Source: a virus. Taken from it: DNA of 36,185 bases. The DNA lies in the UHGV virus genome UHGV-0335474; one strand, 5' to 3'. The position numbers and the translations under genes were made by a program. Below are positions 6,529 through 34,064 of the stretch, one piece after another. Under the pieces are notes generated by a model, which had not been told where the DNA came from, ran no database searches, and saw nothing but the letters and a program-made list of their open reading frames with translations. Numbering within the stretch: position 1 is the first letter of the stretch; each line of letters begins with the position of its first letter.

Positions 6529-8727
6529 ATGGCAGAAAAAAAGATGACTGACTGGCATCGCAAGGTGCTGTGCAACTTTGATAATGCCTGGTCAGCAACG
6601 CAGGATATGCGTGAGCAGATTATTGAGGCTCAACGTTTCGTCCGGGTATCCGGCGCACAGTGGGAAGGCGGTACAAACGCTGGTTACTCATTTGATGAAG
6701 GCAGGTTTGAGCATTACCCGCGCTTTGAACTGAATAAGATTGCCCGTGAATGTGATCGCATCATTGGCGAGTATCGACAGAATCGCATCAGCGTTAAATT
6801 CAGGCCGAAGGACGATAAGGCATCGGAAGCGTTAGCCGAAAAGATGAACGGCAAATTCCGCGCTGACTATCAGGAAACATCCGGTGGCGAAGCGTGTGAT
6901 AACGCATTTGATGATGCCGTAACGGGTGGATTCGGTTGTTTCCGCATGTGTGCCGATTACGAAGATGAAATGGATCCGAGTAACGAGCAGCGACGCATCA
7001 GTCTTCTTCCTGTTTACGACCCAGCGACATGCGTCTTCTTCGATCAGGACAGCAAGCAATATGACCGCTCTGATGCTATGTGGGCTATGGAAATGTTCTC
7101 CATGACGCCTAAAGCGTTCGAGGCTGAATACCCTGATTCCATCGCGGCAAGTCTTTCTCGTGATGACACTGGTACTCAATATGACTGGTCAACTCCTGAC
7201 GCCATCTATGTTGGACGCTACTACGAAGTCCGCATAGAGAAGGTGAAGCTCACAGCATGGCGTAACCCTGTCAGCGGAGAAACGGCAATCTATGATGAAG
7301 AGCAAATCAAAGATATTGTCGACGAGCTGACCGATGGTGCATTCGAACTGATTGGCGAGCGAACGGTGAAGAAACGCCGAGTTTATTGCGGTCTTCTGTC
7401 TGGCGCTGAATGGCTGGAAGAACCGAAGCGTATTCCGGGCGAACATATTCCTCTCATCCCGGTATATGGGCGTCGTTCATTTGTTGATAATCAGGAGCGA
7501 ATCGAAGGCCACGCAGCAAAAGCGATGGATGCACAGCGTCTTGAGAACCTGATGGTTTCCATGATTGCAGATAACGCCACTCAGGCTGGCGGTGATGGCA
7601 TTCCTGTAGTTGATGTTGACATGATTCCTGGTCCTCTTGCCACTCATTGGGCGGAGCGCAACAAAAAGCGCCCGGCGTTCCTGCCGATGGTCAGTCTGAA
7701 AAACAAAAACGGAGATATTACTGCGCAGGCTCAGGTCAGCAGTTATACACCTCCGACACAAATGCCTCCTGCTCTTGCCGGGCTATTGCAGTACACCGGA
7801 ACGGCTATTCAGCAAATTACAGGTGCGTCGCAGCTTGAGAACATGCCGAGCAACGTCGCCACCGATACCGTTGATAGCATCTTTAACCGGATGGACACGC
7901 AGTCCTATATCTACATGGACAACATGGCTAAATCCATGCGTCGCGCTGGCGTTGTGTGGCTTTCTATGGCGCGTGAGGTCTATGGCAGCGATACGCCAAT
8001 GCGCATCGTTAATGAGGACGGCAGCGATGACGTGGCGCTGATGACTGGTGAAGTGGTTGACCGTCAGACAGGGCAGGTTATCGCGCTTAACGACCTTTCG
8101 CAGGGTAACTATGAAGTGACTGTCGATGTTGGTCAGTCGTTCGCTACTCGCCGTGATGCAACGGTTAAGTCGTTACTTTCCATGCTGGCACTTATCCCGC
8201 CTGGAACGCCGAAACACGACCTTGTGTCGTCTCTTATTCTCGACAATATGGACGGCGAAGGGATGGACGACCTTAAAGAATACAACCGCAATCAGTTGCT
8301 TCTGTCTGGCGTTATCAAGCCGAAAACGCCAGAAGAACAGCAAATGGTTGAGCAGGCGAAACAACAACAGGCCAGTCAGCCAGATCCGGCTATGGTTGCT
8401 GCGCAAGGTCAGCTTCTTGCTGGTCAGGCTGAATTGCAGAAAGCGCAGAACGAACAGGCAGCCATTCAGGTTAAAGCATTCCAGGCACAGACTGATGCTC
8501 ATGTTGCAGCGGCAAATGTTGTGAAAATCCTCGCATCTGCCGATAGCCAGCAGAAATCTGATATCCGCGAGGCTCTGAAACTGCTCGGACAGTTCCAGCA
8601 ACAGCAAGGAGACAATGCCCGTGCTGATGCAGAGCTTGTCCTGAAAAGTCAGGCGCAGGGACATGCACAACGCATGGACATCAGCAGCATCCTGCAAAAA
8701 TCAACTCAGCAACAACCACAGCAGTAA
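6529..8727 (+). CDS. Portal protein (P22 gp1-like, with C-terminal Gln-rich barrel)
   Basis: 732 aa immediately after terL; long C-terminal helical Q/A-rich tail as in the P22 portal. Confidence 0.85.
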   Translation: MAEKKMTDWHRKVLCNFDNAWSATQDMREQIIEAQRFVRVSGAQWEGGTNAGYSFDEGRFEHYPRFELNKIARECDRIIGEYRQNRISVKFRPKDDKASEALAEKMNGKFRADYQETSGGEACDNAFDDAVTGGFGCFRMCADYEDEMDPSNEQRRISLLPVYDPATCVFFDQDSKQYDRSDAMWAMEMFSMTPKAFEAEYPDSIAASLSRDDTGTQYDWSTPDAIYVGRYYEVRIEKVKLTAWRNPVSGETAIYDEEQIKDIVDELTDGAFELIGERTVKKRRVYCGLLSGAEWLEEPKRIPGEHIPLIPVYGRRSFVDNQERIEGHAAKAMDAQRLENLMVSMIADNATQAGGDGIPVVDVDMIPGPLATHWAERNKKRPAFLPMVSLKNKNGDITAQAQVSSYTPPTQMPPALAGLLQYTGTAIQQITGASQLENMPSNVATDTVDSIFNRMDTQSYIYMDNMAKSMRRAGVVWLSMAREVYGSDTPMRIVNEDGSDDVALMTGEVVDRQTGQVIALNDLSQGNYEVTVDVGQSFATRRDATVKSLLSMLALIPPGTPKHDLVSSLILDNMDGEGMDDLKEYNRNQLLLSGVIKPKTPEEQQMVEQAKQQQASQPDPAMVAAQGQLLAGQAELQKAQNEQAAIQVKAFQAQTDAHVAAANVVKILASADSQQKSDIREALKLLGQFQQQQGDNARADAELVLKSQAQGHAQRMDISSILQKSTQQQPQQ

Positions 8728-21970: not shown

Positions 21971-22170
21971 GTAAAGAATGTTGTTTCTGCGGCATTAGCG
22001 AATCAGACGCTGATCAAACATACATTTACTCTAAAGAAACAGGTCGGATGCTGTGTAGTGACTGCGTGTTGGACATCATAAGATACAAGCATCTTGGATG
22101 TTCTGCCAGCATTAGCAATATAGGTGAAGTATATGAAGGGAAAGATATAACTGATAGAGCAGAAAGTTGA
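21967..22170 (+). CDS. Small Cys-rich (zinc-ribbon-like) hypothetical protein
   Basis: 67 aa with CCFC...CSDC; ATGA overlap with the arc-like stop. Confidence 0.4.
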   Translation: MSKECCFCGISESDADQTYIYSKETGRMLCSDCVLDIIRYKHLGCSASISNIGEVYEGKDITDRAES

Positions 22171-22233
22171 AGCCCCAACTGCGGTAACAGTCAGGGCTTC
22201 GGTATCGTAAAACCACGCATAGGAATTAACGAC

Positions 22234-32732: not shown

Positions 32733-32793
32733 GGTGTGCTCCTTATTTATACATAACGAAAAACGCCTCGAGTGAAGCGTTATTGGTATGCAT

Positions 32794-32818
32794 ATAAAAA
32801 AGCCCTCACACTGGAGGG
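32794..32818 (-). terminator. Rho-independent terminator within the pL operon (tL-like)
   Basis: Minus strand reads CCCTCCAGTGTGAGGG followed by CTTTTTTAT. Confidence 0.6.
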
Positions 32819-32969
32819 CAAAGAAGATTTCCAATAATCAGAACAAGTCGGCTCCTGTTTAGTTACGAGCGACATTGCTCCGTGTATTCACTCGTTGGAA
32901 TGAATACACAGTGCAGTGTTTATTCGTATGCCTGTCTTTTAACCACATCAGGCTCGGTGGTTCCTTCAC

Positions 32970-33016
32970 TTTCCACAGTCAAAGGAAATGGGTAGACTGT
33001 TGTTTCCACAGTCAAA
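32970..33016 (+). repeat. Direct repeats TTTCCACAGTCAAA (x2) overlapping a putative promoter
   Basis: Copies at 32970-32983 and 33003-33016; candidate -35 TTCCAC (32971-76) and -10 TAGACT (32993-98) upstream of the + strand gene at 33030. Confidence 0.45.
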
Positions 33017-33029
33017 AGAAGGAAATGCT

Positions 33030-33212
33030 ATGTCTAGCAACAATGTAGATGTAACTTTGTACCCAGTTCATGCCGCCTATCAGGTCGCACTTGAGCTTGC
33101 AAAGGCTGGGGCATTCAACAACTCAAGCGATCGCGGAACTGCTTTCATTAATGCCTTTGACAAGTTGAAAGAAAGGTTTGAGCAAGTTCAGGAAGAATCT
33201 AACAACAAGTAA
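33030..33212 (+). CDS. Small hypothetical protein transcribed against the pL operon
   Basis: 60 aa after an AAGGA SD; the track ORF from 32988 would translate through the second repeat. Confidence 0.4.
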   Translation: MSSNNVDVTLYPVHAAYQVALELAKAGAFNNSSDRGTAFINAFDKLKERFEQVQEESNNK

Positions 33213-33498
33213 GCTTTGCAAAGCCAGCGATAATGTTGCTGGCTAACATCTCAAACCGTTTTTTCTGAATATCTCTTGATTCTTCATCAATTGGGGGTTC
33301 ACTATTGCTTAGTGCCGTTACATATACGCGAATTGCCGCTGACCGGACATCATCAGGAAGATGTTCAAGTGTACTGGCTCTTGTTTGAATAAGTTCTGCA
33401 ATAGTTGCTTTCTTAATATCTTCAGTTTTTTCATCAATTACTGATATAAAATTTTTTACTGATGCTTCCAAGGAGCTTTCTAATTTACTTAAATCCAT
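33199..33498 (-). CDS. Hypothetical acidic protein immediately downstream of N
   Basis: Start at MDLSKLE, 2 nt after the N stop; the track ORF from 33567 overlaps N. Confidence 0.45.
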   Translation of the reverse strand: MDLSKLESSLEASVKNFISVIDEKTEDIKKATIAELIQTRASTLEHLPDDVRSAAIRVYVTALSNSEPPIDEESRDIQKKRFEMLASNIIAGFAKLTCC

Positions 33499-33500
33499 AA

Positions 33501-33884
33501 TTACCTCGCTGTCAGTTGTTTTGATTTCCGATAGCCTGCCGCGTAAAGAGCTACATTTGGAAGACATACACCAGTTTCTGGTTGCTTATGTCCAAACTCA
33601 TTCGCGTACACAACGGCCGCTCGCTCCAGATTGCGTCTGTATTCTTTCTGTTGCCAGATCACGTCCTGTGCCATGAACTTAATTGGCTTAGCGTCTTCTA
33701 TGCGCTCAGGCGTTTCGTGAGTACCTTTAGCCTGAATCTGCGCTCTGCTTAGAGTAGGGCGGTGTAATACTTCTGAACTTATTGCTTCTTCGCGGGCCAG
33801 TACGCCGTTAGCTAATGCCTTTGCCTTTAAATGCTCACGACGACGAGAACGTGAATTGCCTTTGAACTGAGTTCTGCGTGTCAT
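33501..33884 (-). CDS. N: Antitermination protein N (P22 gene 24-like)
   Basis: 127 aa with an N-terminal Arg-rich motif (GNSRSRRREHLKAKA); the C-terminus ...VALYAAGYRKSKQLTAR matches the P22 gp24 end as recalled. First gene downstream of pL. Confidence 0.75.
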   Translation of the reverse strand: MTRRTQFKGNSRSRRREHLKAKALANGVLAREEAISSEVLHRPTLSRAQIQAKGTHETPERIEDAKPIKFMAQDVIWQQKEYRRNLERAAVVYANEFGHKQPETGVCLPNVALYAAGYRKSKQLTAR

Positions 33885-34049
33885 ATAGACCTCCTGATGA
33901 ACTTTGGTGGTGTGGTAGGTGGGAGACCCATTTCGACCTGTTTCGGCCTACTTCAATTCGGCAATAGTCCTGCAGGCCTCGCCGCTTTACGTGCGACATA
34001 TTCCCGTCCATGAACCCTTCACCACACCCCAAAGTTCACTTTGGTTATT

Positions 34050-34064
34050 GCGCTTTGTCAGCGC
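34050..34064 (-). promoter_or_regulatory. nutL boxB (P22-type GCGCTGACAAAGCGC hairpin)
   Basis: Minus strand reads GCGCT-GACAA-AGCGC between pL and N. Confidence 0.6.

Follow-up and report, generated by a model that had tools for sequence, protein, structure and literature searches.

A conserved stem-loop at the 5′ end of the PreS small RNA is a candidate processing hairpin of lambdoid early-left operons

What is a perfect inverted repeat with no adjacent T-run doing inside the early-left operon of a lambdoid phage? The repeat in question, GTGTATTCA-ctcgttggaa-TGAATACAC at 32882-32909, lies in the viral genome UHGV-0335474, and the whole stretch of 36,185 nucleotides that was analysed is called the window here. 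A first-pass annotation had reported a perfect 9-bp inverted repeat with a 10-nt spacer, and it is exactly that, with zero mismatches and a single occurrence in the window. It also holds that no T-run is adjacent: neither strand has one, and the repeat is missing from our terminator scan. An intrinsic terminator was set aside for want of a U-run, and only 5 of the 14 pairs of the surrounding helix are G-C. Taken by itself, without its fuller structure, the 9-bp repeat is not significant against chance, for the window has three perfect 9-bp inverted repeats with spacers of 3-12 nt versus 1.76 ± 1.6 expected from 100 first-order Markov simulations.

The structure as a whole is larger and stronger than the one first described. 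In the pL transcript (minus strand) the full stem-loop occupies 32872-32919, with a 5′ arm at 32919-32898, the loop CAAC at 32897-32894 and a 3′ arm at 32893-32872. A repeat search finds the same arms of 22 nt (32872-32893 and 32898-32919), 82% complementary across a 4-nt gap, and the hairpin outranks every other inverted repeat in the 12-kb early region. The minus-strand fold has 14 contiguous pairs below the CAAC tetraloop, followed by 3+3 pairs over two 1x1 mismatches, ~20 pairs in all. The 14-pair helix and its tetraloop span 32880-32911 (minus strand), and the 9-bp repeat at 32882-32909 is their core. RNAfold gives the full hairpin -24.9 kcal/mol versus -9.7 ± 2.4 for shuffled sequences (z -6.3), and 0 of 200 shuffles folded as well.

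The hairpin had been expected to form in either transcript, and for the energies of this copy that is correct, with -24.4 kcal/mol on the plus strand and -24.9 on the minus strand. It does not extend to the hairpin proper or to versions that lack a tandem duplication found here, which fold better on the minus strand. The duplication, CACTG-CACTG (32909-32918, minus strand, 5-nt unit), is also in lambda and is absent from a class of relatives that we call class c (CGAATAA-GCACTG...). The outermost ACA/UGU pairs of the extended stem come from it, and because these favour the plus strand, both strands fold about equally in the window copy. Within the 14-pair helix, 32910.32881 and 32900.32891 are G.U pairs, where the plus strand has A.C mismatches.

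The minus strand of the window is a lambdoid early-left (pL) operon. It includes an N antiterminator of the H-19B/933W type (33501-33884, minus strand, PHROG 271), followed by an unassigned ORF (33199-33498, minus strand); a 60-aa ORF on the plus strand (33030-33212) lies where lambda has sieB, and neither ORF matches a PHROG family. Calling the position of the repeat N-cIII intergenic is therefore loose, as these two ORFs separate N from the hairpin. At 32962-33021 on the plus strand, just upstream of the 60-aa ORF, there are two direct copies of tttccacagtcaaa(g/a)gaa. On the cIII side, the two terminator hairpins mentioned in the first-pass annotation were both found by the terminator scan. 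The nearer is a tL2a-type intrinsic terminator (32796-32819, minus strand; GCCCTC-cagtgt-GAGGGC followed by T6, stem 32802-32819), and the farther is of tL2b type (32757-32781, minus strand; stem 32762-32781), just upstream of the cIII leader; the annotation of HK620 calls the equivalent terminators tL2A and tL2B. The translation-initiation region of cIII itself matches Lambda_thermo (Rfam RF01804, 32687-32745, minus strand, 88.5 bits, E 1.7e-20), which marks the next cistron downstream, with kil and the recombination module beyond. Elsewhere in the window, at 22165-22232 on the minus strand, there is a full-length match to sar RNA (RF00262, 85.7 bits), the P22 antisense regulator of the antirepressor ant, so this phage has a P22-type immI region beside a lambda-type cIII and a 933W-type N.

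Comparison with lambda gave the locus its identity. A 124-nt block, 32802-32925, matches the lambda sequence J02459 at 100% identity in the interval from ral to ea10, where the 28-mer of the repeat lies, unchanged, at 34013-34040. The lambda block is flanked by the inserted genes ral and ea10, while in the window ral is absent upstream and ea10 downstream. No annotation lies at the hairpin in the lambda and HK620 records V00638, J02459, NC_001416 and AF335538 of GenBank. The interval between ea10 and ral does, however, encode LPR1, renamed PreS, an Hfq-dependent lambda sRNA (Silverman et al., bioRxiv 10.1101/2024.10.31.621285) that also appears in a 2025 review. According to that preprint, PreS ends at tL2a, gives bands of ~88 nt and ~68 nt, is restricted to the lytic cycle with expression from 10 min after cI857 induction, activates translation of the host dnaN and represses alaS. 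Its text names neither a promoter nor a processing enzyme for PreS.

The window holds a PreS homologue of ~85 nt at 32796-32880 on the minus strand, with its +1 at the G of 32880 and its 3′ end in the U-run at 32796-32801. It has the LPR1 sequence, a tL2a-type 3′ end with a U-tail, and the same-strand pL slot between N and cIII. Nucleotides 1-79, the seed included, are identical to lambda (32880 down to 32802 in the window); the seed, UGUUCUGAUUAUUGGAAAUCU (~nt 36-56; 32825-32845, minus strand), corresponds to the part of lambda PreS that pairs with the dnaN and alaS mRNAs (alaS, 42-56), as the mutagenesis and deletion primers P838/P839, P888/P889 and P970/P971 of the preprint indicate. The tL2a element is both the 3′ end and the Hfq-binding module of PreS, Hfq binding being known from the lambda experiments. 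Thus +1, seed, terminator, strand and operon are the same as in lambda, and the difference is in the terminator tail, GGGCGAUUUUUU in lambda and GGGCUUUUUU in the window. The first-pass annotation missed this known sRNA, and its description of the hairpin as separate from the two terminator hairpins is misleading, since the nearer one, tL2a, is the 3′ end of PreS; hairpin and tL2a bracket a single sRNA unit. In Rfam, no family matches 32790-32925 above the gathering threshold and PreS is absent from Rfam 15; a permissive search of the same interval returned four chance-level overlaps (13.7-16.9 bits, E 3-8.5), and Lambda_thermo is the only match in the region that passes.

The position of +1 is central to what follows. 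We fixed it at GAGCAATGTCGC from primers P810, P1103, P1107 and P969 together with the LPR1 numbering of Fig. S3E in the preprint, where the primers for cloning, in vitro transcription and deletion start PreS at GAGCAATGTCGCTCGTAACT and the pairing diagram counts GAUUAUUG as PreS 42-49, in line with that +1. The preprint does not say how +1 was mapped, and it may be an estimate good to a few nt. PreS as its authors define it excludes the hairpin, and the full-deletion primer retains everything up to ...GAGTGAATACACG, and hence the hairpin. A plasmid copy of PreS that begins at +1 and lacks the hairpin is active, so the hairpin is not needed for the function of the sRNA itself (bioRxiv 10.1101/2024.10.31.621285). 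In the window, +1 (32880) belongs to the final pair of the 14-bp helix, as its 3′-arm nucleotide, and PreS nt 3-5 and 7-9 make the outer pairs of the extended stem. Pair probabilities computed in a 421-nt context exceed 0.9 for the core helix and are about 0.75 for the two closing pairs beside +1.

Relatives of the locus show what has been conserved. Searches of IMG/VR with the PreS seed, the hairpin and patterns that excluded the reference stem gave ~270 related loci. A hairpin is in the PreS slot in all of the ~120 PreS seed matches that have upstream sequence, and a recurring linker runs through the ~270 loci: a ...GAA-TAA stop, GCAC(C), the helix, and (U)GAGCAAU(G/A)UCGC. The helix comes in two types of unrelated sequence, type R, which is that of the window, and type D, TATAGCAGA-N8-TCTGCTATG. 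In type-D loci, homology to the window restarts exactly at PreS +1. When the upper helices of the two types are aligned, 8 of 11 pairs are changed on both sides with pairing kept, the first four pairs differing by transitions only. Both types share a lower stem of G-C, C-G, an A.A or G.A mismatch, and a C-G pair to +1. The tetraloops vary freely, both in type R (CAAC, CAGU, CAAU, CAGC, CGGU, UUCU) and in type D (UACG, UGCG, GCGC, GCAC, CACG, UACC, and ACUC in the single locus L248), and position -1 is occupied by all four bases among the relatives.

The two strands also differ. In each type there are G.U pairs whose U lies on the 5′ arm, and these are A.C mismatches on the opposite strand; the hairpin proper folds better in sense than in antisense orientation, at -20.2 versus -14.6 kcal/mol for type R and -13.4 versus -11.6 for type D. 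When a covariance model was trained on type R only, it picked up type D over its full length, though weakly (E 0.007-0.4); its automatic alignment included antisense matches, and pairs were counted by script instead. Point variants within type R comprise ~2 that keep a pair and 6 that break one, mostly singletons, too few and too mixed for a covariation signal. The rare variants that break stem pairs are U33C, U35C, C43A and G60U (3 loci). The evidence for structural conservation is accordingly the swap of one helix for the other, the helix structure being kept in relatives despite the exchange of its sequence.

Pairing that is conserved on the transcribed strand, free in sequence, indifferent to its loop and close to stop codons is what marks an intercistronic hairpin for processing or stability, as opposed to a loop-specific protein site. 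A nut site was set aside on its architecture, the stem being far longer than boxB and the loop varying freely (CAAC, CAGU, CGGU and others), and with the sole boxA-like string (CGCTCGTAAC) lying 3′ of the hairpin, which is the wrong order. The boxA consensus, CGCUCUUA or UGCUCUUUAAC, is resembled by CGCUCGUAAC at 32861-32870 (minus strand; PreS nt 11-20).

The protein-binding site offered as another option in the first-pass annotation found nothing in its support. Such a site would be an operator in the DNA, palindromic and bound by a dimeric protein of phage or host, with GTGTATTCA and TGAATACAC as half-sites, and perfect 9-bp half-sites around a variable centre are what an operator would look like; type D, as a second "specificity", could even mirror a second protein. 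The half-sites are nevertheless spaced 19 bp centre to centre in one type and 17 bp in the other, pairing runs into the "spacer" as RNA only, there is no promoter nearby on either strand, and a stop-adjacent position within an operon is odd for an operator. By eye, no match of the half-sites was recognised to a consensus of the host regulators considered (ARG box, CRP, LexA, Fur). We regard an operator as very unlikely.

Still less credible is a chance palindrome without function. It is true that ~1.8 such 9-bp repeats would be expected in 36 kb, but this reckoning ignores the z of -6.3 for the full hairpin and is contradicted by the conservation data, in which the helix has been replaced by another helix and not lost. 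Moreover, 2239 of 5426 complete E. coli genomes and 333 phage records contain the 136-nt block of hairpin plus PreS at 95-100% identity, although PreS by itself could account for this degree of conservation. An E. coli genome has up to 6 copies, 20 copies are on plasmids, and no RefSeq feature underlies the block in the E. coli records listed. Species-representative genomes added no diversity, as their 21 matches are mostly lambda spike-in contamination. Assemblies of Pseudoxanthomonas, Shewanella, Bradyrhizobium, Kitasatospora, Neobacillus and others also contain the PreS sequence, on short contigs or on ones of ~48.5 kb with low coverage; these are almost certainly contamination by lambda spike-in or control DNA.

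If the hairpin is an RNA element of the pL transcript, its place at the 5′ end of PreS suggests what it does. Our promoter scan found no sigma-70-like promoter able to start PreS, and an origin from its own promoter was set aside. The 5′ end of PreS would then be made by cleavage, because there is no promoter, because expression is pL-like, and because the base of the helix coincides both with +1 and with the breakpoint between types R and D. We infer the cleavage, the enzyme and a PreS 5′ end set by the cut from the structure, the identity with lambda, the position of +1 and the helix swap, and we give about an even chance to a hairpin that is cleaved, in the manner of an RNase III site, to set the 5′ end of PreS. 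The first-pass annotation had suggested an RNA processing or stability element; this is the reading we favour, and it is partly supported, in that the hairpin is on the strand transcribed from pL and has its base at the 5′ end of PreS.

In the mechanism we propose, RNA polymerase modified by N would read from pL through the region after prophage induction, and the hairpin would fold in the transcript. A double-strand-specific endonuclease, most likely host RNase III, would cut between 32881 and 32880, at the base of the 14-bp helix, giving the 5′-monophosphate end of a PreS of ~85-88 nt that ends at tL2a, and the upstream RNA would keep the hairpin as a protecting cap at its 3′ end. The shorter form, PreS-S, would come from a second cleavage, probably by RNase E, ~20 nt further in. 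The linker that contains the hairpin is a generic intercistronic one of lambdoid early-left operons, placed also between ordinary small genes.

The geometry of the hairpin can be compared with what RNase III prefers. The stem has 22 positions, about two helical turns that are mostly paired, in keeping with the ~20-22 bp of an E. coli RNase III processing hairpin. A cut between -1 and +1 with a 2-nt 3′ overhang falls at the centre of the stem and leaves an 11-bp hairpin. At double cuts by RNase III in vivo, the two positions between the staggered cuts are paired, usually including a G-C pair (PMC6212723). In the +1 register these positions are U.G and G-C in type R, which fits the rule, and C.U and U.G in type D, which breaks it. 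For its part, RNase E prefers RN↓WUU. The +1 context, ACG↓GAGC, misfits this preference, and the approximate site for the 68-nt form, GUAACU↓AAAC, fits it in part.

The poor match of the type-D helix to the double-cut rule is one reason to consider a hairpin that is never cleaved, and acts passively, shielding the upstream message from 3′ exonucleases, insulating the PreS seed against pairing with upstream RNA, or doing both, with an RNase E/G-like enzyme making the 5′ end. The surroundings of the hairpin in relatives are the other. Ahead of the helix core, GAA-TAA ends at least 8 unrelated ORFs, whose frames are open for 47-91 codons and whose C-terminal peptides differ, and the distance from stop to core is fixed at 5 nt in type D or 7 nt in type R without the duplication. 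In the window, the GAATAA of the linker's left flank (32920-32925, minus strand) closes only a 31-codon frame of doubtful reality. Downstream of the linker there is PreS, a divergent PreS-like body, a 66-codon ORF or, once, the cIII leader, so that the hairpin precedes ordinary ORFs and cIII where there is no sRNA at all. In addition, a 146-nt fold pairs the 5′ nucleotides of PreS with the seed-proximal region directly after the hairpin, as insulation would have it. An uncleaved hairpin nonetheless leaves the 5′ end to an enzyme of the RNase E kind at a +1 sequence that is neither AU-rich nor single-stranded, as RNase E prefers; it makes no use of the exact coincidence of helix base, published +1 and R/D homology breakpoint; and a stem of 22 positions exceeds what is needed to block an exonuclease. 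We see it as possible but less probable than a cleaved hairpin.

The same surroundings qualify the processing reading itself. In loci that have no PreS, the hairpin stands ahead of small ORFs or, in one case, is joined to the cIII leader; it therefore cannot serve PreS alone, and its primary role may be a general one, such as protection of upstream 3′ ends, insulation of folding or a joint for recombination. The cIII fusion is in locus L136 (minus strand, ~7486-7530 and downstream), in which a type-R hairpin and GGAGCAAT are joined straight to the cIII leader (SD, ATGCAATATGCC), and PreS body, tL2a and tL2b are all missing; the hairpin can therefore exist without PreS.

A joint for recombination could also be all that the linker is. 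On this account its flanks and palindrome would be a "boundary sequence" at the DNA level, used in homologous or Red recombination of cassettes, and the RNA hairpin would be functionless. Mosaic breakpoints do cluster at its edges (sense positions 16, 26/27, +1 and after +19), ral and ea10 have been inserted on either side of the block in lambda and neither is in the window, PreS and the PreS-like bodies occur in free combination with either helix type, and some phages have two linkers around a 66-codon ORF. Yet breakpoints gather at the edges of any conserved element in mosaic phages, and recombination needs identity and not pairing, which leaves two unrelated, fully pairing helices without an explanation, as it does the G.U pairs that are mismatches on the other strand and the stems that are conserved around free loops. 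We consider a purely DNA-level joint unlikely.

The phages with two linkers were seen in locus L124 (328-640) and also in L130, L131, L139 and L258, where a type-D linker is followed ~245 nt on by one of type R and the two flank the 66-codon ORF (MGRKFKVWLDSGANIHSCYKQEIDIEEDLG...EEIESE*), an arrangement that resembles a hairpin-bounded cassette. Candidate PreS-like sRNAs lie behind the linker at L224:3390-3600, L124:590-790, L248:3190-3400, L261:470-680 and in L130. They share the 5′ end GAGCAAUAUCGCUCGUAAC, and they differ in their seeds (e.g. GUUCUGGUUAAUCGAAAAAUC, GUUCUGGUUAUUGGAGAAUC) and in their intrinsic terminators. The PreS homologues in the preprint are all at least 92% identical (bioRxiv 10.1101/2024.10.31.621285), and the candidates therefore look like an undescribed, seed-variable family.

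A combination of the two functions can be imagined, in which the linker is a dual-purpose junction, at once an RNA processing site and a DNA joint at which phages exchange cassettes of sRNAs and small genes, much as at integrons or PeSL elements. This extension of the processing reading is speculative and, in our judgement, improbable. Equally conjectural is its corollary that processing would yield individually stabilised units, among them the seed-variable PreS-like sRNAs.

The hairpin of the window is an exact copy of that of lambda, in a locus published in 2024-2025, and intercistronic processing hairpins of phages are a well-known kind of element. In the literature on tL2a, on the pL processing sites of Hyman and Honigman, on lambda RNase III sites and on the Hfq-binding sRNAs of EHEC (Tree 2014), we found nothing on this hairpin. 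Its link with the 5′ end of PreS, the linker with two helices and the PreS-like relatives appear to be undescribed in the accessible literature, which for PreS is the preprint version of the study.

Among lambda sRNAs, PreS was the first for which reprogramming of an essential host function was shown, through activated translation of the sliding clamp gene dnaN, and the accessible text of that study does not explain its release from the pL transcript. If the hairpin is the release signal, the dosage of PreS would depend on how active RNase III is and on read-through by N. Should it serve only for stability or as a joint for recombination, it would be an ordinary feature of the operon. The linker also precedes the divergent PreS-like sRNAs with other seeds, and the hairpin-plus-PreS block, which carries no annotation, is found in ~41% of complete E. 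coli genomes, so that the linker is a convenient marker with which to find and annotate sRNAs of prophages, those of Shiga-toxin phages included.

Several known systems invite comparison. Phage lambda itself has RNase III hairpins in the pL transcript, in the N leader and at sib, which are long imperfect stems without a U-run and regulate N and int. The hairpin described here shares their transcript and would share their host enzyme, while its position and sequence differ, and no RNase III site is recorded at lambda 34003-34050 in the GenBank lambda records examined. On the DNA side, T4-type phages have PeSL elements, and "boundary sequences" of lambdoid phages have been noted for HK620 and HK97. 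Like these, the linker is a short conserved stem-loop element that flanks small, freely reassorting genes of the early region. PeSLs, however, have an early promoter, of which we see none here, and a part in recombination is inferred for the linker from breakpoint positions only.

The operon slot occupied by PreS has counterparts in E. coli K-12. The annotation of that genome places kilS of the Rac prophage (L273:8406-8503) and dicF of Qin (L274:19383-19435) in the equivalent slot, which runs from the sieB or ydfC side to the division inhibitor kil or dicB, so that an "sRNA slot" upstream of kil seems to recur in lambdoid early-left operons. The sequences of DicF and KilS are unrelated to that of PreS. 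K-12 has no copy of the linker hairpin, Rac and Qin included, and published RNase III maps of K-12 therefore do not cover it. DicF is matured through RNase III together with RNase E, with RNase III acting at its 3′ side.

The early operon of T7 offers a matching layout, with intercistronic RNase III hairpins, e.g. R1.1, close to stop codons. These sites are likewise hairpins of ~20 bp between early cistrons, with an internal mismatch near the cut and a loop of no importance, and cutting at the 3′ side would in both systems keep the hairpin attached to the RNA upstream. They differ in having no sequence similarity to the linker, in that cleavage is putative here, and in their downstream product, which is an mRNA in T7 and would be an sRNA in our case. 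The early RNase III sites of T7 and the maturation of DicF are the closest functional precedents for a hairpin that would release PreS.
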